DNA from: Candidatus Micrarchaeota archaeon
GTDB lineage: Archaea > Micrarchaeota > Micrarchaeia > Anstonellales > Anstonellaceae
Direction of reading: 5' to 3'
Assembly: GCA_013331805.1 (NCBI GenBank)
Contig: DUFS01000053.1
Coordinates: forward strand, 1 to 12,593
Length of the DNA stretch: 12,593 bases
The notes beneath the pieces are model-generated. The model made no database searches, was not told the DNA's origin, and worked only from the letters and a program-made list of their open reading frames with translations. Positions 171-12,593 of this stretch are shown one piece after another. A program made the translations under genes and the position numbers. How positions within the stretch are numbered: the stretch's first letter is position 1; every line of letters begins with the position of its first letter.

Positions 171-1331
171 AAATATATGACCATGAAGATGTACCGCTTC
201 AGAATCTATCCTTCGAAAGCGCAGGAAAAGCAGCTGGGCCAACATCTCTGGCTTGCTAAGAACCTGTGGAACGACCTTCTTGAGCACAGCAAAAACACCT
301 ACAGGAACTTTGACAAATTTCCTTCGAGAGATGCCTTGCAACTGATGTCAAAGGATTCTGGGATGTATTCTCAGACATCACAGGAAATAGCCCACCGTGT
401 GGAGAACGGCATCTGGCGCTATGTCAAGCTGAGGAAGGCAGGGAACAGGAAAGCCGGCTTCCCACGCTTCAGATCCATTGACAGGATGAGAAGCCTGCAC
501 TATCCACAGTCCGGTTTCTGGCTTGGCAATGAGCTCAAGGTGACTCCATTCGCTGAAATCCCAATAGTCCAGCACAGGCGGATAAAGGGAAAGATAAAGA
601 CGCTGACGCTCAAGAGAGAAGCTTCTGGAAAATGGTTTGCCTGCTTCGCTGTTGAGGAAACGCCGGTAATCAAGGCATCAAATGGCAAGTCAAGAATAGG
701 CGTAGACCTTGGCCTGAAGACGCTGGCGACCCTGTCAAACGGCTCAAAGATAAGCAATCCAAGACACATTAGAAAGCATCAGGACAAGATAGCCTTTCTG
801 CAGAGGGTAAGTGACAGGAAGAAGAAGGGGAGCAAAAACAGAAAGAAAGCCAAGAGGAATGTTGCCATTGAGTTTGAGAAGCTGAAGAACACCAGAAAGG
901 ATTTCCTGCACAGGCTTTCACATAATCTAGTCAATTCATATTCCTTCATCGCCCTGGAAGACCTGGCATCGCAGGAACTTGCTGAAATGAACTTCGGCAA
1001 GCAGATAAACGATGCAGGCTGGGGTGAGTTGGCGAACATGCTGCGCTACAAGGCTGAGAGTGCCGGTTGTGAGGTCGTGTTTGTCAATCCTGAGGGTACT
1101 ACAAAGATATGCTGCATCTGTGAAAACAAGATGGACATGCCGCTGGCAGTCAGGGGATATGACTGCCCAATGTGTGGCAACCATATGGACAGGGACTTGA
1201 ACGCGGCATACAACATACTCAAAAGAGCTACTGCCGGATCGGCAGGAAGTAATGCTTGTGGAGATGGGCTGCATGTCCGTCTTTGAAACAAGAAGCCACG
1301 GCTTGGGCGAAGCCAAGCCGGGGAGGATCAC
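157..1331 (+). mobile_element. IS200/IS605-family element, tnpB only (IS1341-like); right end well defined, left end uncertain
   Basis: tnpB followed by GAAG, a subterminal hairpin (CGGCTTGG 1299-1306 / CCAAGCCG 1313-1320) and GGGAGGATCAC ending at 1331. No tnpA in the window. Left boundary placed tentatively after TTTAT (152-156); it may lie further upstream. Confidence 0.7.
177..1286 (+). CDS. tnpB: TnpB RNA-guided endonuclease (IS200/IS605 OrfB), 369 aa; start may be ATG 183
   Basis: N-terminal YRFRIYPSKAQ, GFPRFRS, RuvC-I IGVDLGLK, RuvC-II IALEDL, zinc ribbon CCIC...CPMC, RuvC-III DRDLNAAYNI; D-E-D triad intact. Confidence 0.96.
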   Translation: MTMKMYRFRIYPSKAQEKQLGQHLWLAKNLWNDLLEHSKNTYRNFDKFPSRDALQLMSKDSGMYSQTSQEIAHRVENGIWRYVKLRKAGNRKAGFPRFRSIDRMRSLHYPQSGFWLGNELKVTPFAEIPIVQHRRIKGKIKTLTLKREASGKWFACFAVEETPVIKASNGKSRIGVDLGLKTLATLSNGSKISNPRHIRKHQDKIAFLQRVSDRKKKGSKNRKKAKRNVAIEFEKLKNTRKDFLHRLSHNLVNSYSFIALEDLASQELAEMNFGKQINDAGWGELANMLRYKAESAGCEVVFVNPEGTTKICCICENKMDMPLAVRGYDCPMCGNHMDRDLNAAYNILKRATAGSAGSNACGDGLHVRL

Positions 1332-2589: not shown

Positions 2590-3333
2590 CTAAATCTTGC
2601 AGACTGGCGCAGGAAGGAGCTTGTGCCTGTTCGCTTTCATGCGCAGCAATATTTTCTCAACCGTTTTCTTGTCGAACTTTTTCACCAAAGCTGATCTTTT
2701 GGCGCCTTTCCCGATTGCCTTCAGTATGGCGTCCGCCTCCTGGTAGGAAAAGCCAAGCTCCTCCTCCGCGGTCTGCCCCAGCCATAGCGCGGGCGAGGGC
2801 GGCTTGCGGAGAATCGCCTGCGGCAATCCCAGGAGCCTGCCCAGTTCCCTTACTTCAGTCTTGTAAAGGCCGCCGATCGGGAAAAGGTCAGCTCCGCCAT
2901 CCCCGTGTTTCGTGAAGTAGCCAAGCAGAAATTCGCTTTTGTCGCCAGTGCCTGCCACCAGGCCGTTTTTCCTCTGGGCAAGTGAGTAGAGGATTGCCAT
3001 TCTCACGCGCGCGGACAGGTTGGCCCTAAGGAGGTTGCTTGAAGACAATTCCCTGAAAGCGGAAATGATTGGCTCAATCTCGAACTTCACCATCCTAATG
3101 CCCAATTTGGAGCAGAGGTCCTCGGCGTCGGCCAGGTCGTCGGCCGGCGTGGAGGCAGAGGGAAGCAGCACGGCAAGCGTGTTTTTCCTCCCAAGAGCCC
3201 GCACGCAGAGGGAGAGCGTGGCGGCTGAGTCCAGGCCCCCGGACAGCCCCACAACCGCCGTTTTTTTTCCAGAGGACCTGAAGCAATCCCTTATGAACCT
3301 GAGGATTTTCCCCCTGGCTTTTTTCGGCTTCAT
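2590..3333 (-). CDS. nadE: NH3-dependent NAD+ synthetase, 247 aa
   Basis: VVGLSGGLDSA PP-loop, ANLSARVRM, GTGDKSE, GYFTKHGDGGAD, LYKTEV, KPPSPALW..QTAEEELG. True start MKPKK at 3333, 8 nt after the ATPase stop; the longer 418-aa ORF call overlaps the ATPase. No glutaminase domain. Confidence 0.95.
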   Translation of the reverse strand: MKPKKARGKILRFIRDCFRSSGKKTAVVGLSGGLDSAATLSLCVRALGRKNTLAVLLPSASTPADDLADAEDLCSKLGIRMVKFEIEPIISAFRELSSSNLLRANLSARVRMAILYSLAQRKNGLVAGTGDKSEFLLGYFTKHGDGGADLFPIGGLYKTEVRELGRLLGLPQAILRKPPSPALWLGQTAEEELGFSYQEADAILKAIGKGAKRSALVKKFDKKTVEKILLRMKANRHKLLPAPVCKI

Positions 3334-3341
3334 AGCGACCA

Positions 3342-6005
3342 CTAATATGCCGTGGTGAACGGCAGGAACTTCTTCTTGGATTCCTCCAGCACCATGATGA
3401 GCGCAGACGCGCCTGCGACAAGGAGCAGGTCCTCCACTGAAAGAGGCACAGTCTTGAACACCTCTTGAAGCGGGGCAGCGTACACGATCGCCAGATGCAG
3501 CGCAAGCGAGGCTGTTATGGCAAGGTAAATGTAGCGGTTGGAGAAGAACCTCCTGAAAATTGACTCGTGCCCGGAGCGGCAGTTGAGCGCGTTCATAAGC
3601 TGCAGGAAGACGAAGAGCGTGAACACGACAGTGGTTGCCTTTTCGGGCGAGTAGTAGCGGTAGTAGCCGAACACCGCAAGCGAAATCGAGGCCATGACCA
3701 GCCCGAGCACCAGTATGGAGATCACCAGGTTCCTGCTCATGAAGCCTGCCTTCGGGTTCCTGGGCGGGCGGTTCATCTCGTCCTTGGAGGGCGGCTCGGC
3801 GCCAAGGGCAAGCGCGGGCGGGCCGTCTATCATGATGTTTATCCACAGTATCTGGACAGGAATCAGCGGGAGCTGGCCAGTGAAGACCGGACCTGCGAAC
3901 ATGAGCGAAAGCGCTGCCACGTTGGTGGAAAGCTGGTAGCGCACGAACGACTTGATGTTGTTGAAGATCGTCCTGCCGTACTTCACCGCGCTCACGATCG
4001 AGGCGAAATTGTCGTCCGTGAGCACTATGTCCGAAACCTCCTTTGTGACATCTGTGCCTGCAAGCCCCATTGCAACGCCGATGTCCGCCTTCTTTATTGC
4101 AGGGGAGTCGTTCACGCCATCCCCGGTCACTGCGACTATTTCGTCCCTCTTCATGTATGTCTGAACAATCTTGTATTTCTGCTCAGGAGTGACCCGTGAA
4201 AATAGCGATATGGAAGGGACAATTCTTTCGAATTCCTGCTCTGAGAGGTCCGAGAGAGCGGAGCCGTCCATCACCTGCCCGCCCTCCTCAAGCAGCCCCA
4301 CTTTCGCGGCAATCGCCCGCGCAGTGGAAAGCGAGTCGCCAGTTATCATCACGACTTTTATTCCCGCAGAACGGCAAAGGGCAATCGCCTCGGCAGCCTC
4401 GGGCCTGGGCGGGTCCTCCATTGCCACCAGGCCCACCAGCACCAGGCCGCTTTCTGTGTTCGCAGATGAGTAGGATGACTTCTTTTCCACCTTTCTGTAA
4501 GCAAGCGCAAGCACCCTCATGCCCATGTTTCCAAGCGACTGCGAATCAGTAGCGAACTTCCTCTGTGTGTCGCCTGTCAATTTCTTTTCTCCGTTGTGCA
4601 TTAACACAAACTTGCAGCGGGGGAGGACCTTTTCAGGCGCCCCCTTCACAAGTGCAATCCTCTCCCTTCCCCACATTCTGACGGAGCTCATCATCTTGCG
4701 GTCAGAGTCAAAGGGGATCTCGCCCACTTCCTTGTGCTCGCTCCGCAGCCCCTTTTCGCTTGCCCCGCAGGCCTCCACTGCGGAGAGGAGCGCGGTTTCA
4801 GTGGGATCGCCGGTGAATTTGTCCACCCCTGCCTCGCTCACCTTGATGGCGTTGTTGCAAAGCGCCATCACCTCAACAGCGCGCGCAAGGACAGCGTCGC
4901 GGCGCGTGGCTCCCTCGTCCATGCCCGCCTTTCCAATGGTGTACGCGTTTTCGGAAAGGATTATTTCCTGCACCTCCATCCTGTTCTGCGTTATGGTGCC
5001 TGTCTTGTCAGTGCAAATCACCGTAGCCGAGCCCAATGCCTCAACTGCTGACATCTTTCGCACAATGGCGTTCCTTTTCGCCATTTTCTGCACGCCAAGC
5101 GCAAGGGTGATCGCAAGCACAGTGGGCAAACCCTCGGGTATTACAGCAACTGCAAGAGTTACTGCCACCACGAACATGCTGGAAGCCGATTCACCCCTCA
5201 GCAGCCCGATTCCGAAGAACAGTATGGCTGCCGTGATTCCAGCATAGCCAAGGTAGCGCGAAAGCTGCGATATGTTCCTCTGAAGCGGAGCCTCACCCTT
5301 TTCCTTTTCAGTGACATACCCCACGATTTTCCCGAACTCGGTCTGCATGCCCGTGGTTACCACCACTCCCTTGCAGTGGCCCCGCACAATCACAGTGCCT
5401 GAGAAAAGCATGTTCCTCTGGTCGGACAGCACGGATTTTGCAGGTACAGTGCAAGCCTCCTTGCTTGCCGGCCTGGACTCGCCTGTGAGCATGGACTGGT
5501 CGGAAGCCAGGTTGATCGCCTCCACCAGCCGCAGGTCAGCAGGAACCGCAGAGCCCTCTTCCAGAATAACCATGTCCCCGACAACAAGCTCGCGGGAGTT
5601 TATGGATAGCTGCCTGCCCCCCCTTACCACTATGGAGTGCAGCACCACCATTTTCTTGAGCGCCTCAAGCGCGCGCTCTGCCTTGTACTCCTGCCAAAAG
5701 CCAAAGGAAACCGCAATGAACACCGCTACCAGTATTGCTGCGGCATCTATGAGCTTGTCCCTGTCCAAAGTGAGCCCAAGAGCAAGCGAAATCGCCGCTG
5801 CTGCAAGAAGCATGAGTATGGGCAGGCTCCTGAACTGGGAAAGAAACTTTGCGTACCAGGGCTCCTTCTTCACCTCCTGGATGGAATTGGGGCCGAGCTT
5901 TTCCAGAAGCTCCCATGCTTTTTTCTCGCTCAATCCCTTTTCAGAAGTGCCAAGCTCGGAAAAAACGGACAATAGCGAAACCGAATGCCACCTTCCTCCC
6001 GTCAT
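3342..6005 (-). CDS. P-type (P2A) cation-transporting ATPase, PMR1/SPCA-like Ca2+/Mn2+ pump, 887 aa
   Basis: TGES, IPEGL, DKTGT phosphorylation site, KGAPE, MITGD, TGDGVND; about ten hydrophobic segments; M5 YQLSTNVAALSL, M6 QILWINIMIDGPPAL. Confidence 0.93.
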   Translation of the reverse strand: MTGGRWHSVSLLSVFSELGTSEKGLSEKKAWELLEKLGPNSIQEVKKEPWYAKFLSQFRSLPILMLLAAAAISLALGLTLDRDKLIDAAAILVAVFIAVSFGFWQEYKAERALEALKKMVVLHSIVVRGGRQLSINSRELVVGDMVILEEGSAVPADLRLVEAINLASDQSMLTGESRPASKEACTVPAKSVLSDQRNMLFSGTVIVRGHCKGVVVTTGMQTEFGKIVGYVTEKEKGEAPLQRNISQLSRYLGYAGITAAILFFGIGLLRGESASSMFVVAVTLAVAVIPEGLPTVLAITLALGVQKMAKRNAIVRKMSAVEALGSATVICTDKTGTITQNRMEVQEIILSENAYTIGKAGMDEGATRRDAVLARAVEVMALCNNAIKVSEAGVDKFTGDPTETALLSAVEACGASEKGLRSEHKEVGEIPFDSDRKMMSSVRMWGRERIALVKGAPEKVLPRCKFVLMHNGEKKLTGDTQRKFATDSQSLGNMGMRVLALAYRKVEKKSSYSSANTESGLVLVGLVAMEDPPRPEAAEAIALCRSAGIKVVMITGDSLSTARAIAAKVGLLEEGGQVMDGSALSDLSEQEFERIVPSISLFSRVTPEQKYKIVQTYMKRDEIVAVTGDGVNDSPAIKKADIGVAMGLAGTDVTKEVSDIVLTDDNFASIVSAVKYGRTIFNNIKSFVRYQLSTNVAALSLMFAGPVFTGQLPLIPVQILWINIMIDGPPALALGAEPPSKDEMNRPPRNPKAGFMSRNLVISILVLGLVMASISLAVFGYYRYYSPEKATTVVFTLFVFLQLMNALNCRSGHESIFRRFFSNRYIYLAITASLALHLAIVYAAPLQEVFKTVPLSVEDLLLVAGASALIMVLEESKKKFLPFTTAY

Positions 6006-6064: not shown

Positions 6065-9000
6065 CTAAAAGTCGGTTATTTTCTTCTGCTCGGATTTCCT
6101 TCGCCTTTTTGGGGATGCCCTCTTCAATTGCTGCTTATGGGCTTCTTCCCTTTCCTTTTCTTCCCCAGCACCTGTGATTTTCCCTTCGCCTATTTCCTTT
6201 CGTATCTTTTGGCCCGATGAGAATGCCTTCTGCATCCTGCCCACTATCCGCTTCATGTTCTCCTCCTTTTTCCTGGAAGAGTAAAAGTACGCCTCGTCGC
6301 GCGTGGCTGTTGTTATGAGCACCACCACCCTGCCAGCCTTCAGCCTGCCCGCCCTGCCCCGCCTTTGTATGGAGCGGATTTCGGAAGGAATGGGCTCGAA
6401 GAAAACAACCGTGTCCACCGAGGGTATGTCCAAACCCTCCTCCCCTATGCTGTTATGAAGGCAAAACAAGCCCAATCCACCAAGGAATCTTTCAGTATTT
6501 TTGACTGAAATGTCATAAACAAAACCCGGCTGCCTATTAATTGCTTTTATGCTTTTTATAAAGTCAAAGCAATTGCTCTCGCATGGAACCGTTTTTATTC
6601 TGGGCTTAAGACGCCCCGGCAATCTAACATATCTGTTCCCGAACTTTTCAAACGCTTTAATGGATGAAAATGCGCTTGGAATTAAATTATAGTATGCCTG
6701 CTTTCCATCGGTTTCAGCAACCCTTTGGAATTTCAGTGATTCAGAAATGTATAAATCATAGGCACTCTTTTTCTTGGCTTTGACCAGGCTGATTTTTCGA
6801 ATATTCAATTGCCTCAAGAGCACTATTAAACCGAACATCAATTTCTCGCTCACTGACGTGAATATTATTCTTTTATCACAAACACAGCCATCCCCCGCAC
6901 AATATCCCTCTAAAAATTTCCATTTTTGTCCAGAAGGCGCTGAAAACAAATAATCCGGAACTTCTTTGTTATAAGCGCCAACGCCGCCCCTAAAGACATA
7001 TTTAATCAAGTAATGGGCAATCTGTGCCTCGATAGCAACCCCGTGCCAACAAGTCCTTGTTTTCAATCCCAAACCATTTGCAACGCTCTTTCTCATCTTT
7101 TTTTGCATCTGTTTGCCCCTGGCGGCGAGGAATACATCGGAGGTGCTTTTTGTCTTCCTTGTTGAGCCTTCGGAAACATACAGACCTAAAAATTCCGCTA
7201 GCGCTTCGTTTGGTTTTATATATCTCGGTATTTTGGCCTTTCCATAAGATACTTCCACAAATTGTTTGCAAAATTCATTTACGAATGGCGGCGCCTTAAT
7301 TGCTTTTTTTAACGGAATTCGGTATTTCATTTTTCTGTAACAATAGCTATCAAAAAGCCATTCCAAGAATGCCAAATACCGCTTCCCAGATTCAGTTATG
7401 CTCAAAATTTTGTATCTGCCCATGGTTGCTGTTTTTATCAACTTTCTGCTTTCCAATCTTTTAGCGGCATCTGCAACTGTGGATCTGCCGATGCCCGCGT
7501 TTAGGGCCATTCTTTCCATATGCTTGTCTTTCTCCCTTATCGCGAAAAGGAATTTCATGTCTGTGGAATATATTCTAATCTTTGCCTGAGTAATACCTTC
7601 TAGAGACACGTAAATACTATTAATGACATTTTTCGGCGCATTTATTACGAGTTCATTCACTATGTCTATCTCTCTCTCAAGCTCTATATTCGGTGCACTG
7701 ATGGCGAGTTTTACAAATAAGCCATTTTCCGGTTTCGCCGGGATTAGATCTGACTTATCGCTGAAAGAAAAAAGACTGTGGTCCTCAGTCACTTTTGTTC
7801 TAAAACCAGACGCCGTTTTGATCTCGACCACTTTGGATCTTCTTCTGTGTTTGTGAACATGGGTGATCCGGCAGAAATCGACTTTTTCTCCGCCATATGA
7901 AAGCACAGAATATCCGCCTATTTTCTTGGAAGCGGTCATTTTTGAGTTTGATTTAATGAACGAATTAACGAAATTGCCGATTTTCTCTATCTTTATTGTG
8001 TCGTTGATATCGTTGCGGATAAGTATAAATTCATCTGGGTGAACACTGGTGGCGCACATGACGTCGAACTCGCCTGCTGCAAAGCTCGCTATTGTTTTCT
8101 TCTGCTCGTCCGAGGTGACCCCTTCCTTCTTGCCAACGAACCTTTCTGCTGAAAAGCCCTCGTTCCGAAGCGCATTCACCATTGCCTTGACCTGGTCGCG
8201 GTACTGCGCAAAGACCAGCACTTTCTCCCCCTTGCCTTTCCGTTCCTTGAGAATTCTCACGAGCTCGGCAAGCTTGGGGTGCTCGCTTGCCTTTTCGCAG
8301 AGCTTGAGCACCTCCTCAAAGCGCCTGTCCCTCATTATCCTCTGCCTTGCCTTGGTGTCGGGCCTAGCTTTCATCTTCTCAACGTAGGCAAGAAAAGTAG
8401 CAAGCCCCTGGGTTTCAATGAGCTCGAGCATGTGCACAAGGTTGAAGACAGTGGCATAAAGAGAGAGCATCGGGTACCTGATCCGCTCGGAAAAGCGCAT
8501 TATCCTCATCCGAAGCTCGACCAGGCCCTTTTTGGAGCGCAAGGGAACGCTCACATTGTAGTTTTCCAATCGCTTGGAGTAATCGTCCAGCATGGACTGC
8601 AGAAGCTTCCTCACATCAGAAAACTCCTTTCCAAGCGCCACCCGCACGTACTCGATTTCCAATGGCTGAACGTACCTCTTCACGTCCTCGTCCTCGGCAG
8701 TGCGGATCTCGATATTCTCAATTCCCAAGGCTGCGACGATTTCCTCTATCCTCTTCCTGCTTCCGCCTGGAGAGGCAGTGAGCCCGAGTATTTTCCCGCC
8801 TGCCTTCACGCACTGCCCTGCCACGAATGTATAGGCGTAATTGCCCACTGACCGGTGCGCCTCGTCAATCACGCAAAGCGAGCAGTCCGCAGCCGCCCTT
8901 CCTGCCTTAAGGTCGTTTTGAAGCGACTGAGGGGTGGAAAAGCACACCCTTTTTTCCCAAAGCTCCTTTCGCTTCTTGGGCTGCACCTCGCCGCTAATCA

Positions 9001-9253
9001 GTGCCGTGTCACTTTCAGGGAATTCCATTGACTGCAGGAAAGTGCGATGGTGCTGCTGCACCAGCGGCTTTGTTGGGGCAAGGAAAAACACCCTGCCTTT
9101 CTCAGCCTGTTCGGCTATTACAAGGAATGCAATGAGCGTTTTCCCTATGCCTGTGGGAAGCACCACCAGGGTGTTCCCCTTGTGGAGCGCGGAAGCAGCT
9201 ATGGCAAGCTGGTACGCTCGCGGCAGTATGTGCTCCCGAAGACGATAGGCCAT
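6065..9253 (-). CDS. hef: Hef/FANCM/Mph1-family SF2 helicase precursor (1062 aa) containing an intein; spliced product about 530 aa, no XPF/ERCC4 nuclease domain
   Basis: PRAYQ Q-motif, LPTGIGKT, LAPTKPLVQQH, IDEAHR, GLTASPG, EHPKL, VLVFAQYR, motif V CAT|SIGEEGLDIP split by the intein, QRRGRAGR, TRDEAYFY, charged tail ending QKKITDF. Confidence 0.93.
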   Translation of the reverse strand: MAYRLREHILPRAYQLAIAASALHKGNTLVVLPTGIGKTLIAFLVIAEQAEKGRVFFLAPTKPLVQQHHRTFLQSMEFPESDTALISGEVQPKKRKELWEKRVCFSTPQSLQNDLKAGRAAADCSLCVIDEAHRSVGNYAYTFVAGQCVKAGGKILGLTASPGGSRKRIEEIVAALGIENIEIRTAEDEDVKRYVQPLEIEYVRVALGKEFSDVRKLLQSMLDDYSKRLENYNVSVPLRSKKGLVELRMRIMRFSERIRYPMLSLYATVFNLVHMLELIETQGLATFLAYVEKMKARPDTKARQRIMRDRRFEEVLKLCEKASEHPKLAELVRILKERKGKGEKVLVFAQYRDQVKAMVNALRNEGFSAERFVGKKEGVTSDEQKKTIASFAAGEFDVMCATSVHPDEFILIRNDINDTIKIEKIGNFVNSFIKSNSKMTASKKIGGYSVLSYGGEKVDFCRITHVHKHRRRSKVVEIKTASGFRTKVTEDHSLFSFSDKSDLIPAKPENGLFVKLAISAPNIELEREIDIVNELVINAPKNVINSIYVSLEGITQAKIRIYSTDMKFLFAIREKDKHMERMALNAGIGRSTVADAAKRLESRKLIKTATMGRYKILSITESGKRYLAFLEWLFDSYCYRKMKYRIPLKKAIKAPPFVNEFCKQFVEVSYGKAKIPRYIKPNEALAEFLGLYVSEGSTRKTKSTSDVFLAARGKQMQKKMRKSVANGLGLKTRTCWHGVAIEAQIAHYLIKYVFRGGVGAYNKEVPDYLFSAPSGQKWKFLEGYCAGDGCVCDKRIIFTSVSEKLMFGLIVLLRQLNIRKISLVKAKKKSAYDLYISESLKFQRVAETDGKQAYYNLIPSAFSSIKAFEKFGNRYVRLPGRLKPRIKTVPCESNCFDFIKSIKAINRQPGFVYDISVKNTERFLGGLGLFCLHNSIGEEGLDIPSVDTVVFFEPIPSEIRSIQRRGRAGRLKAGRVVVLITTATRDEAYFYSSRKKEENMKRIVGRMQKAFSSGQKIRKEIGEGKITGAGEEKEREEAHKQQLKRASPKRRRKSEQKKITDF
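6452..8047 (-). mobile_element. Intein (532 aa, residues 403-934) with LAGLIDADG homing endonuclease and an additional wHTH-like insert
   Basis: Block A SVHPDEFILI (Ser1), block B VTEDHSLF, block C LAEFLGLYVSEGS, block E FLEGYCAGDG, block H TSVSEKLMFGLIVLL, block F VYDISV, block G LHN followed by +1 Ser. Removal restores ATSIGEEGLDIP. AT-richer than the flanks. Confidence 0.95.
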
Positions 9254-9290: not shown

Positions 9291-9326
9291 GAGGTATGCT
9301 GCCAGTTGAGATTGCGAGGTGCCCCT

Positions 9327-9521
9327 ATGATACTTCCAAAAGCCCCTGTCGAGAAACTCATCCGCGAAGCAGGCGCAGACCGCGTGTCCGACTCGGCCGC
9401 AGCCGAGCTTGCCGAAGTGCTGGAGAAAATCGGGCTGGAGATCTCTCACCGCGCCATAAAGTACGCCAAGCACGCTGGCAGGAAAACCGTCACCGCGGCA
9501 GACATCAAGCTGGCGAGATGA
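9327..9521 (+). CDS. Archaeal histone (HMf/HTk family), 64 aa
   Basis: MILPKAPVEKLIREAGADRVSDSA...AKHAGRKTVTAADIKLA aligns without gaps to HMfB as I recall it; SD GAGGTG 5 nt upstream supports start 9327 over 9252. Confidence 0.96.
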   Translation: MILPKAPVEKLIREAGADRVSDSAAAELAEVLEKIGLEISHRAIKYAKHAGRKTVTAADIKLAR

Positions 9522-9533
9522 TTATGCCTGTTT

Positions 9534-9616
9534 CCCGAACGAAAAGCGATGTGCATTATCGTCGCTACGAAAATGCATCGCTTTTTGCCCGAACAAAAAG
9601 CGAACCATTTAAATGG
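9534..9616. repeat. Direct/inverted repeat array abutting the TATA box of the downstream regulator gene (candidate operator)
   Basis: CCCGAACGAAAAGCGA 9534-9549 and CCCGAACAAAAAGCGA 9588-9603 (15/16 identical, 54 bp apart); perfect IR TCGCTTTTTG 9578-9587 / CAAAAAGCGA 9594-9603; perfect IR AAAAGCGATG 9542-9551 / CATCGCTTTT 9576-9585; palindromic CCATTTAAATGG 9605-9616 containing TTTAAAT at -30..-24 from ATG 9638. Confidence 0.8.
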
Positions 9617-9637: not shown

Positions 9638-10528
9638 ATGAAATGCCTATTCGGTGCCCTTGCATTCGCACTGCTGCTTTCTCTAGCATCTGCGCAGCAG
9701 TTCGAGGCATACTTTTCAGAGAATTCTTCAGCCATGGCGCTTTCCGTTCTCAACCTCACCTACCAGGGGCACTACGGAAACTACACAGTGGACGTGGGCG
9801 TGTTTCCCCCTCCCTCCTATGTGCGCGTTTCGGGCGCAGAGGCAAGCCAGATGGCGCTAGCAAACGAAATAGGCTGGCTGATAAACGAGCGCGCGCTCGA
9901 AACATCCTGCGACCCCTCCAAACTCCTCATGTTCAGCTGGGTTTCATCTTATTGCAATAACATAGGCGAGTGGGCGGACTGCGCTCAGGTTTCTGATTGC
10001 CCGAACCGCACTGCGCCGCCCCAGCCAGAAGCCTTTGAGAACCTGATTGCGCCAACAGGAGCAGCTCAGGACAAGGCACAAGAGGCAAACTTCCCCCAAC
10101 TGCCCTCATTCGGTGTTGCAACAGCAGCGCAAAGAAAGGCAGGCGAGGAGGCAGCAACCGCTCCCCCTTTGCAGCAAGGAATAACGCTCGAGCAGCTGCT
10201 TCCGCTTGTGGGAGCATTCATAGCAGTCATAATAGCGGCTTACCTCCTGCTGCACCAGCGCCAGGCAACTATTGAGCTTGACCCGCAAACAGAAAGGCTG
10301 CTTGAAAACGAGACGCGCGCAGGCATACTCCAGGAGCTTGAGGCGGCTGACAAGATACCAACCGACCTGTCGGTGAAGCTCGGGAAAAGCAAGGCGACCA
10401 TAGTGGAGCACCTGGAAACGTTGCTGCAGGCAGGATTCGTGGAAAAACTCGCCACCCCGGGGAGAAAGTTCGTTTTCTACAGGCTCACCAGGAAGGGCAA
10501 GCAGGCTCTTTTGAGAAGGGCAGGCTGA
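9638..10528 (+). CDS. Membrane-anchored ArsR-like winged-helix protein: signal peptide, extracellular domain, one TM helix, C-terminal wHTH, 296 aa
   Basis: MKCLFGALAFALLLSLASA-Q signal peptide; four N-x-S/T sequons and four Cys in the ectodomain; P/A/Q-rich linker; TM LLPLVGAFIAVIIAAYLLL; ENETRAGILQEL...TDLSVKLGKSKATIVEHLETLLQAGFVEK...GRKFVFYRLTRKG. The ORF-track start 9296 overlaps the histone and is rejected. Confidence 0.85.
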   Translation: MKCLFGALAFALLLSLASAQQFEAYFSENSSAMALSVLNLTYQGHYGNYTVDVGVFPPPSYVRVSGAEASQMALANEIGWLINERALETSCDPSKLLMFSWVSSYCNNIGEWADCAQVSDCPNRTAPPQPEAFENLIAPTGAAQDKAQEANFPQLPSFGVATAAQRKAGEEAATAPPLQQGITLEQLLPLVGAFIAVIIAAYLLLHQRQATIELDPQTERLLENETRAGILQELEAADKIPTDLSVKLGKSKATIVEHLETLLQAGFVEKLATPGRKFVFYRLTRKGKQALLRRAG

Positions 10529-11206: not shown

Positions 11207-11381
11207 TGGCTCCTGAAAGCCGGCAGGCTTGCCTTCCTGGACCTCTGCCACAATGACAGGCAATAAGCGCATTTCGGGGAGGCTGTTTTACCTAGAACTG
11301 AGAAATTCAGGCCTAGCGCAAACAAGGCCAAACTCGCAGGGAGGCGCTTCTTTTGATAGCAAATAGCCTTCAGAGATAAAT

Positions 11382-11436
11382 TGTTTTTCTTAGGTAAAAT
11401 ATATTTATACCTAGTAAAAACATATCTTTTTATATT
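11382..11436 (+). promoter_or_regulatory. 41-bp inverted repeat (candidate operator) followed by TATA box of the AbiE-like operon
   Basis: TGTTTTTCTTAGGTA 11382-11396 / TACCTAGTAAAAACA 11408-11422 (13/15 complementary, 11-nt spacer AAATATATTTA); TTTTTATATT 11427-11436 at -29..-20 from ATG 11456. Confidence 0.7.
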
Positions 11437-11455
11437 TTCCCTTCCCAATCCATGC

Positions 11456-12058
11456 ATGAAAGGCAATTTCGCGCTGAAATACGCGCGCATACTTGAAATC
11501 CTGCCCTCCGTAGCAGAGTGCACTGGCGGCAGGCTCGTGCTTGTCGGAGGCACTGCGCTTGCAATTTTCCACCTGAAACACAGGCTCAGCGTTGACCTTG
11601 ACTTCGCCACGCTAGGGAGCGACGACGTTCAAGCAAAGGAGGCGCTGAAGGGCTGCCTTTCGGCAAAGGGCGTGAGGGCATTCCGAAGCAGGTTCTCCAA
11701 CCAGTTCGTAATACATTTTGAGGACACGAGCATCAAGGTGGAGGTGCTCCCGCCTTCCTTCAAGGTAAACAAAGCAGAATGGCATGAGGTGGGCGGATCC
11801 GGGCTCCTTGTCGCCTCCCTTGAAGACATCCTCCGCATGAAAGAAGGAGCCTACGCAGAAAGGAAAGAGGCCCGTGACCTGTTTGACGTGATGCTTATCC
11901 TGAAAAGCACGGGCGAGCCTCTCCTGCGCATGAGGTCGATGATAAAAAAGAACGGTGCCCCAAAGAACATGGAAAGGCTCCAGGCAATGGTCTTCAGCAA
12001 GGCAGATTTTGAGGAATTTGAAGGAGAGGTTTCAGATGCTTCCAAAACAAGCAATTAG
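11456..12058 (+). CDS. AbiEii/DUF1814-family nucleotidyltransferase (type IV TA toxin-like), 200 aa
   Basis: LVGGTALAIFHLKHRLSVDLDF (GG-T...R-x-S-x-D-x-D), KVEV, SLEDILRMK, ERKEARDLFD. Start set at ATG 11456; the extension from 11381 is AT-rich promoter sequence. Confidence 0.9.
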   Translation: MKGNFALKYARILEILPSVAECTGGRLVLVGGTALAIFHLKHRLSVDLDFATLGSDDVQAKEALKGCLSAKGVRAFRSRFSNQFVIHFEDTSIKVEVLPPSFKVNKAEWHEVGGSGLLVASLEDILRMKEGAYAERKEARDLFDVMLILKSTGEPLLRMRSMIKKNGAPKNMERLQAMVFSKADFEEFEGEVSDASKTSN

Positions 12059-12593
12059 CTTTGCACAGCTCCGGAAAGACGGCTTCGGTGACAAGGAGAT
12101 AAAGGGCATGCTAATGTCCCTCCGCCTCTTCCCCACCCCTTTCAAGGGCATCTACTACGTGCCCCTGGAGGAGGAGCGCGGCGGGTGGTTCATAGAAAAG
12201 CCCAAGCTCGCCCTTTACCAGGCCCTTGCCCTCTACCTTGGCACAAAGGGATTCTACTTTTCCTGCGCCACTGCCGAGGAGGAGGCAGGCGTTTCCTGGC
12301 ACCGGTCAGGCGAAATACACGTGGTGAACACTGCGCGCTCGGGAAGGGTTGACCTTGAGGCCCGCTCTGAGCGGAATGCTGCCAAGGGCACATACAGGTC
12401 GAAGAAAGTGGCGCGCCTGATCGCCATGTACGCGCGGAAAATCATCTTCCACAAGGCGCCAAGCGTCAAGGGTGCGAAAGCCAGGCAAACCATATACGGA
12501 AGCTTCGCTCTCCCCTCGCAGATAAAAAAGGACAGGAAACGGTTCCGTGAGCTTGCGGTTCGGCCAGAGTACGAAAAGAAGCTGGAGAGGCTG
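12036..12593 (+). CDS. AbiEi-like antitoxin/regulator, 3'-truncated by the window edge (at least 186 aa); absent from the ORF track
   Basis: SD GGAGAGGT then ATG 12036, overlapping the toxin end by 23 nt; open to the end: MLPKQAISFAQLRKDGFGDKEIKGMLMSLRLFPTPFKGIYYVP...FYFSCATAEEEAG...EIHVVN...KIIFHK...QTIYGSFALP. The KGIYY and Y-x-S-x-x-TA-x4-G patterns resemble AbiEi proteins. Confidence 0.72.
   Translation, partial: MLPKQAISFAQLRKDGFGDKEIKGMLMSLRLFPTPFKGIYYVPLEEERGGWFIEKPKLALYQALALYLGTKGFYFSCATAEEEAGVSWHRSGEIHVVNTARSGRVDLEARSERNAAKGTYRSKKVARLIAMYARKIIFHKAPSVKGAKARQTIYGSFALPSQIKKDRKRFRELAVRPEYEKKLERL

Follow-up and report, generated by a model that had tools for sequence, protein, structure and literature searches.

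A putative membrane-tethered winged-helix regulator of a Micrarchaeota archaeon and a candidate operator shared with a beta-propeller surface protein gene

Can a surface receptor of an archaeon act directly on transcription, and which genes would it then control? The question is raised by an open reading frame (ORF) at positions 9638-10528 (+) of a 12,593-nucleotide stretch of Candidatus Micrarchaeota DNA (assembly GCA_013331805.1, contig DUFS01000053.1), referred to here as the window. The window is contig C66 of an 83-contig, 1.19-Mb genome with an estimated completeness of 91.5%, and the genomes related to it are labelled Micrarchaeota, Micrarchaeia or Anstonellaceae. The ORF has no internal stop and codes for 296 amino acids, hereafter the regulator protein. 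An original prediction, made from the letters of the DNA alone, had described it as a receptor-like regulator with a glycosylated domain outside the cell, one transmembrane (TM) helix and an ArsR-like winged helix-turn-helix (wHTH) in the cytoplasm. This interpretation is right in kind: the layout and the type of regulator are supported, glycosylation is not. We consider it fairly probable that the protein is a membrane-tethered one-component regulator which controls its own gene and the gene of a beta-propeller surface protein.

The signal peptide, four-cysteine ectodomain, A/P/Q-rich stalk, single TM segment and carboxyl terminal wHTH of the prediction all lie where they had been placed (Table 1), and Pfam, alignment, AlphaFold and hydropathy agree that this layout is real and conserved across the homologues. 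Relatives keep a hydrophobic amino terminus with small residues before the same ASA/QQ point of the alignment. Hydropathy peaks at 2.71 over residues 187-205 (positions 10196-10252), within a region modelled by AlphaFold as a helix (residues 184-210). Lysine plus arginine residues average 0.38 in the 12 amino acids before the TM segment against 1.68 in the 15 after it (34 homologues), an enrichment that fits an N-out/C-in type I topology. From these features we infer both signal-peptide cleavage and the orientation of the protein. The predicted local distance difference test (pLDDT) is below 50 at residues 127-180 of the linker. Mean identity to the regulator protein, over 34 aligned homologues, is 79% in the wHTH, 56% in the TM segment, 40% in the ectodomain and 18% in the linker.

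The wHTH belongs with the ArsR and MarR proteins. Pfam HTH_5 (PF01022) matches residues 224-270 (32 bits against a cut-off of 22, E 1.2e-7), while NCBIfam ArsR-type models match residues 220-287 below their cut-offs (HTH_metalloreg, 27.7 bits against 55) and the haloarchaeal wHTH models of Pfam also stay below theirs (HVO_A0261_N, 19.1 bits against 35). Trans_reg_C is absent from the Pfam matches of the protein at E <= 0.01. AlphaFold models residues 216-295 as a helix-turn-helix with a two-strand wing (helices 225-236, 244-248, 252-265 and 285-295; strands 268-271 and 280-283). The nearest solved sequences are the ArsR-family proteins 2oqg and PH1932 (E 3e-4). Foldseek neighbours of the model are MarR, MepR, MosR-DNA and pI258 CadC (E from 5e-4), some of them solved with DNA, and another structural neighbour is 4rs8, a plasmid centromere-binding wHTH. 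The recognition-helix and wing motifs of ArsR/MarR proteins are intact and invariant. The protein has no cysteine after residue 121; the lack of cytoplasmic cysteines and the HTH_metalloreg score below cut-off indicate that it is not a classical ArsR metal sensor.

Tethering to the membrane is a property of the whole wHTH subfamily. In 146 of its best 150 representatives, 94 have a TM segment just before a carboxyl terminal wHTH and 42 have an amino terminal wHTH followed by a TM segment, so that the subfamily is almost without exception membrane-tethered, in both orientations. The amino terminal type forms one group in a quick unrooted tree (SH-aLRT branch support 96). Other members of this branch have large and differing parts outside the cell after the TM segment: P0203 has DUF4382, P0169 has DUF2330, and the domains of P0163 and P0182 are unnamed. 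Several surface domains have been joined in this way to the tethered wHTH.

A 17-bp consensus, CCGAAC-N5-(C/G)CGAAC, is found upstream of 19 of 19 orthologues, with a TATA box 2-3 nt downstream. In all 19 promoters the distance from the start of the second box to the ATG is 37-39 nt, the start codon in relatives being taken as the first start codon with a hydrophobic stretch after it. The closeness of TATA box and boxes to the ATG, in the same geometry throughout, suggests that the regulator mRNA is leaderless. The element or a close variant was also recognised by eye in 28 of 29 further promoters of the regulator gene, from six genera. CGAAC occurs at the box position in one of 101 candidate leaderless promoters of the genome, that of the regulator gene, which rules out a generic transcription factor B (TFB) recognition element (BRE) as explanation of the boxes. 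Scanned with a position weight matrix (PWM) built from the 19 regulator promoters only, the regulator promoter is the top site of the 1.19-Mb genome (score 26.7). Seven of the 19 promoters have an inverted copy of box 1, 4-7 nt upstream, and the two vary in concert, as in the pairs TTTGTTTGG and CCAAACAAA or TTTATTCGG and CCGAATAAA. This conserved, gene-specific promoter element lends indirect support to the predicted role of the protein in transcription.

The next best PWM sites of the genome lie on contigs C46 (26.0) and C45 (20.4-21.5). The gene behind the first codes for a protein of 750 amino acids that has a lipobox and matches Beta_propel (PF09826) at E 1e-154; behind the second is a gene for a DUF4139 membrane protein (C45:15678-17209, -). 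When one mismatch is allowed, the pattern has 36 matches in 25 of 42 family genomes, against 6 for a reversed control. By their coordinates, 21 of the 36 precede the regulator gene and 12 a Beta_propel gene, and one each is found before a DUF4139 gene, before a small lipoprotein-like ORF and before nothing.

The presence of the element at Beta_propel genes follows that of the regulator. Thirty Beta_propel upstream regions were scored; one was dropped for missing upstream sequence, and the gene fragments of genomes G004, G025 and G036 were left out. In genomes with the regulator, 27 of 27 regions score among the highest 5% when set against 945 control windows, and 22 reach p <= 0.002. Three of three genomes with Beta_propel but no regulator (G017 and G018 of genus g7, and G026) have the region at background (p 0.05, 0.48 and 0.95). 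Window and G026 share a genus; in G026 the Hef-histone locus is intact and another gene follows the histone gene. The DUF4139 gene is present in 6 of the 42 family genomes and four of these carry the element (three g1 copies and, weakly, G007), G015 and G006 being without it.

The resemblance of the two promoters goes further in the genome of the window. The upstream modules at 9533-9605 and at about 11976-12065 (-) of contig C46 are nearly identical, and each has, besides the double box, a long hairpin with a T-run and a distal partial box. Such near-identity of the regulator and Beta_propel promoters is also seen in G037 and G038, the other 12 genomes compared sharing the 17-bp element and TATA box only. 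This suggests either that copying has taken place between them inside a genome or that they have an additional site in common.

Other lineages offer a view on the same relationship from proteins with the opposite architecture. Loci L028 and L030, labelled Aenigmatarchaeota, code for 149-amino-acid proteins with an amino terminal wHTH and two carboxyl terminal TM segments. Their own promoters carry CCGAACAAAAA...TTTTAAAT, with PWM scores of 17.1 and 21.5 against 7.7 for the 99th percentile of the control, and CCGAACAAAAA adjoins the TATA box in both. The predicted pairing of wHTH and motif survives this change of architecture. In each of the three loci of this sort (L028, L030 and L029, the latter from an unclassified archaeon) the wHTH-TM gene has a same-strand Beta_propel gene directly behind it. 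In protein P0191, HTH_5, a TM segment and Beta_propel (E 2e-163) are found in one polypeptide; an HTH family and PF09826 occur together in 12 of the 120 clusters listed as homologues of P0191, one of the 12 being labelled Aenigmarchaeota. A common operator-like element, adjacency and fusion are three different kinds of evidence which point to wHTH and Beta_propel as one functional unit.

The following mechanism can be proposed. The regulator would be a type I membrane protein whose small disulfide-type ectodomain faces outward, joined by a flexible stalk and one TM helix to a wHTH that sits about 10 residues below the membrane. While still membrane-bound, the wHTH would bind CCGAAC-N5-CCGAAC abutting the TATA box of its own promoter and the same element at the promoter of the Beta_propel surface lipoprotein; in the genome of the window it would probably also bind at the DUF4139 membrane-protein gene. 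The ectodomain may sense the state of the cell surface, possibly the Beta_propel lipoprotein itself, which would couple that state to expression of a small set of surface-protein genes. The 11-bp spacing of the direct repeat, like that of the ToxR site, suggests two wHTH domains on one face of the DNA. As to the sign of regulation, the position of box 2, that of the BRE, suggests competition with TFB. Archaeal activators bind upstream of the BRE, and box 1 occupies such a site.

Several points weigh against this proposal. Five of the 27 Beta_propel promoters are weak (p 0.008-0.048) and have box 1 only, and in the low-scoring loci L122, L123 and L125 the best site is not beside an obvious TATA box. 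The orthologue of G024 lacks the element before the regulator gene, and the distant relatives L026, L029, L031 and L032 are also without it. Support for a joint loss of regulator and element comes from two independent events, one in genus g7 and one in G026, and the genomes concerned have a completeness of 84-97%. More generally the genomes are related and many are incomplete; they are not independent samples, so that the counts given above overstate the support. ArsR-family dimers usually bind inverted repeats, and in the present element it is a direct repeat that is universally conserved. DNA binding by the wHTH, the place where transcription starts and the topology are all predicted. Another factor could bind the element, and TFB, in place of a regulator, could read the second box as a strong BRE specific to the gene.

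The last two doubts lead to an alternative in which a different soluble regulator, or a special TFB-BRE pair, owns CCGAAC. The receptor would then be one co-regulated surface gene among others and its wHTH would have targets elsewhere. The location of box 2 at the BRE position agrees with this explanation, and the genes behind the element, coding for the regulator, Beta_propel, DUF4139 and small lipoprotein-like products, are all for exported or membrane proteins, as expected for a surface regulon. However, the element tracks the wHTH gene across phyla and through opposite architectures that have only the wHTH in common, the three genomes that keep Beta_propel and lack the wHTH gene do not have it before Beta_propel, and fusion and adjacency tie wHTH and Beta_propel to each other directly. 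We regard this alternative as unlikely.

Equally improbable in our view is a proteolytic release of the DNA-binding part, a route already put forward in the original prediction. A surface cue would trigger cleavage in or near the TM helix (regulated intramembrane proteolysis) and the freed 9-kDa wHTH would bind the boxes as a soluble factor. The genome codes for two M50 site-2 protease homologues, but M50 is matched in all 14 control genomes and is thus not specific; no rhomboid was found in the 91.5% complete genome. The glycine of the TM segment (LLGAF) is kept in the alignment and the regulator protein has a proline at position 189, yet no cleavage motif was identified. Some members, such as P0113 and P0093, which may be fragments, consist of TM segment and wHTH only and would offer no ectodomain for a first cut.

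Very improbable, finally, is a wHTH that reads no DNA sequence and whose tail binds protein, or DNA non-specifically, as anchor of a Beta_propel complex or as tether between chromosome and membrane: the gene adjoins a histone gene in most relatives, the structural neighbour 4rs8 binds a plasmid centromere and the identity of the tail (79% against 40% for the ectodomain) would suit a protein-protein interface, but the synteny embraces P-type ATPase, Hef-like helicase, histone and regulator genes and looks like plain gene order, the recognition-helix and wing motifs are invariant, and a conserved gene-specific element at the own promoter is the pattern of autoregulated regulators.

The proposal of a regulator that acts from the membrane can be extended to a minimal contact-sensing circuit of DPANN archaea, an extension that we advance as tentative and rather doubtful. 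An ectodomain of new fold would read the state of the beta-propeller lipoprotein, possibly an adhesin directed at the host, to which the regulator is fused in some lineages. By binding the direct-repeat operator at the membrane, the regulator would feed this information into transcription of both genes. If this were true, a 1.2-Mb genome of the symbiont type would keep one dedicated outside-in path whose sensor, operator and target can all be identified from sequence.

Modelled alone from 65 sequences, the ectodomain is a confident alpha/beta domain (pLDDT 91, predicted template-modelling score 0.84). Its cysteines are kept among the 34 aligned homologues in 33 (C91), 33 (C106), 28 (C115) and 31 (C121) cases. 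The domain matches no Pfam family, and Foldseek finds no match in the PDB at E <= 0.001, so that the earlier statement that it is unrecognised is borne out. Over 48,161 chains the best VIA-align score is Z 5.0, to 71 residues of a TBP half and in a range that the tool calls common. ESM Atlas gives no usable feature match; its structural rows reach TM-scores of 0.43-0.54 to HMA/ferredoxin-like domains, with a poor model of the Atlas itself (pLDDT 0.47). No fold is claimed.

The TM-wHTH module is homologous across the wider family (hhalign E 1e-40 to 1e-47) and the ectodomains differ, as the original prediction had proposed to check. P0120 has a VIT+VWA ectodomain in place of that of the regulator protein. 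Three other unnamed ectodomain types (alignments A3, A4 and A5) are interrelated, with hhalign probabilities of 95-98%; that of the regulator matches them weakly (probability 4.5-36%), always over the same strand-helix stretch.

The claim of glycosylation fares less well. The sequons NSS, NLT, NYT and NRT are present in the ectodomain and are kept in position in 7, 10, 15 and 1 of 34 homologues, respectively; two of the 34 have no sequon outside at all. The best-kept sequon, N224-E-T (33 of 34), is in the predicted cytoplasmic wHTH. With this and the poor positional conservation outside, the sequons are uninformative on glycosylation. The match of STT3 in the genome is below threshold (22.3 bits against a cut-off of 24.5), and glycosylation is left without support. 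The weak match lies at C70:3663-4352 (-) in an open frame of 1080 amino acids, which could code for a divergent AglB oligosaccharyltransferase.

The regulator is a single gene and neither a fusion nor an assembly artefact. Its carboxyl terminal 117 amino acids match 35 of the 42 family genomes (once in 34, twice in one), 7 being without a match, among them the three genomes of genus g7 (0 of 3). A profile search of five of the seven gave a weak match in one and otherwise nothing. The same 117-amino-acid query has no paralogue in the genome of the window at E <= 0.001. At E <= 0.001 a word-indexed search returned 86 homologues, of which about 75 span the full length, at 37-76% identity; a profile search of 1.84 billion representatives gave 1558 matches at E <= 0.001 and 66 at E <= 1e-30. 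The family appears so far only in DPANN lineages. No full-length match to a characterised family was found in Pfam, NCBIfam or the sequences of solved structures. The 20 public runs listed are all DNA metagenomes, mostly from groundwater, with no RNA run among them.

Neighbours are kept in 17 of 18 loci that have a near-full-length orthologue, with the P-type ATPase and Hef-like helicase genes on the other strand. A histone gene is upstream of the orthologue in 13 of 18 loci (tblastn, E <= 1e-4). A functional meaning of the histone adjacency was rejected: the block holds four unrelated genes and is plain conserved gene order. The segment 9522-9600 between histone and regulator genes folds with -24.5 kcal/mol (z -4.35), and its hairpin at 9535-9588 is probably the histone terminator. 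Coordinates are collected in Table 1.

Table 1. Features of the regulator gene, its product and its upstream region (positions in the window)
Feature	Positions	Strand	Basis
Archaeal histone gene, directly upstream of the regulator gene	9326-9521	+	Pfam CBFD_NFYB_HMF, E 5e-15
Distal partial box (CCGAACGAAAAGCGA), 5' arm of long hairpin ending in T-run	9535-9588	+	PWM 14.2 at 9533; fold
Predicted operator, direct boxes CCGAAC/GCGAAC 11 bp apart (CCGAACAAAAAGCGAAC)	9589-9605	+	19 of 19 orthologous promoters
TATA box TTTAAAT, 24 nt before ATG	9608-9614	+	Read from sequence
Predicted signal peptide, residues 1-19, ending ASA/QQ	9638-9694	+	Hydropathy and alignment; cleavage inferred
Ectodomain, residues 20-125, alpha/beta, four conserved Cys, outside known families	9695-10012	+	AlphaFold model and alignment
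Linker, residues 126-183, A/P/Q-rich, disordered, variable	10013-10186	+	AlphaFold pLDDT and alignment
Single TM helix, residues 184-207	10187-10258	+	Hydropathy, AlphaFold helix, lysine plus arginine bias
ArsR/MarR-type wHTH, residues 220-296, without Cys, predicted cytoplasmic	10295-10525	+	HTH_5 match, identity, structural neighbours

The window has several other features. The Hef-like helicase gene (6065-9253, -) contains an intein (Pfam Intein_splicing and LAGLIDADG_3), where G+C drops to 0.40. A helicase match is present in 18 related loci; there the parts that flank the intein, query residues 1-404 and about 900-1062, adjoin each other or overlap, and the intein appears to be lacking. 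A TnpB/IS605 OrfB-type gene (OrfB_IS605, Cas12f1-like TNB) occupies 177-1286 (+) and its last part runs into the beginning of the ribose-5-phosphate isomerase ORF; a copy with 77% identity lies between the helicase and histone genes in locus L013. The 418-amino-acid ORF at 2590-3846 (-) overlaps the end of the P-type ATPase gene. Its NAD synthase domain begins only at residue 181, and the NAD synthase gene itself probably starts near 3300. Rfam has no family within the window.

Downstream of the regulator gene, the segment 10583-12593 contains an ORF of 207 amino acids of unknown nature, an AbiEii toxin-domain gene (11381-12058) and an open-ended unknown ORF, with a lower G+C of 0.49. It looks like an insertion, and the contig ends there. 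In the relatives L004, L017 and L018 the regulator gene is directly followed instead by a conserved gene for a single-TM membrane protein without Pfam family. Two tandem copies of that gene are found at the start of contig C59 (69-1555), with 26-28% identity to the L015 protein, and this contig may continue the regulator locus.

How does such a regulator compare with known systems? Transmembrane transcription regulators are a known kind of protein, defined by a DNA-binding domain and at least one TM segment (PMC10269533), and the regulator protein, in which both are predicted, falls within this class. According to the main text of that study, 367 of the 404 archaeal species surveyed have them, and single-pass proteins make up 56% of the total (Demey et al. 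2023). A word search of the same main text found neither 'DPANN' nor 'ArsR', and its supplementary tables may list members of the regulator family. Excerpts of the 'dark matter' paper (PMC4158269) have nothing on the family. No description of the family, its topology, its ectodomain or its predicted operator and target was found in the literature searched, the supplementary tables of PMC10269533 excepted as a place where members may be listed, and no paper was found on the function of PF09826.

The family provides a complete hypothesis drawn from sequence: a receptor whose wHTH would lie in the cytoplasm, a candidate operator of 17 bp and a target set of two to three surface genes. Beta_propel would gain its first regulatory context. 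To our knowledge, the sensing of partners or surfaces by DPANN archaea is little understood, and few signalling genes can be recognised in their genomes.

ToxR, TcpP and CadC are likewise single-pass membrane proteins whose wHTH faces the cytoplasm and whose small sensor domain lies outside. The consensus site of ToxR, as given in a passage of PMC8517210 that cites Goss et al. 2013, is the direct repeat TNAAA-N5-TNAAA, with the same spacing as CCGAAC-N5-CCGAAC. ToxR also has a partner membrane protein, ToxS, a role suspected here for Beta_propel. In contrast to ToxR and CadC, whose order of domains is reversed, the sensor of the present protein is amino terminal behind a signal peptide and its wHTH carboxyl terminal. 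The wHTH of the bacterial proteins is moreover of the OmpR type and that of the archaeal regulator of the ArsR/MarR type, without sequence relationship, and its site is at a TATA/BRE promoter.

Closer in lineage, ArnR and ArnR1 of Sulfolobus acidocaldarius are described in a passage of PMC6396743 as membrane-bound one-component regulators that bind the flaB, aapF and upsX promoters; they share with the regulator an archaeal origin, attachment to the membrane and surface-structure gene promoters as (here predicted) targets. The searches made revealed no homology between ArnR and the regulator protein. ArnR is under phosphorylation and starvation control and its targets are pili, whereas the predicted target here is a beta-propeller lipoprotein. 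ArnR has an amino terminal HTH and carboxyl terminal TM helices.

The ArsR/SmtB family is the nearest in sequence, as seen from the HTH_5 match above cut-off and the closest solved proteins. Its members typically regulate their own genes through an operator in the promoter. The regulator differs from this family by its membrane anchor, the absence of cysteine-based metal sites and the direct repeat that forms the conserved core of its putative operator. It would extend the transmembrane transcription regulators to a type I layout with carboxyl terminal wHTH in archaea.

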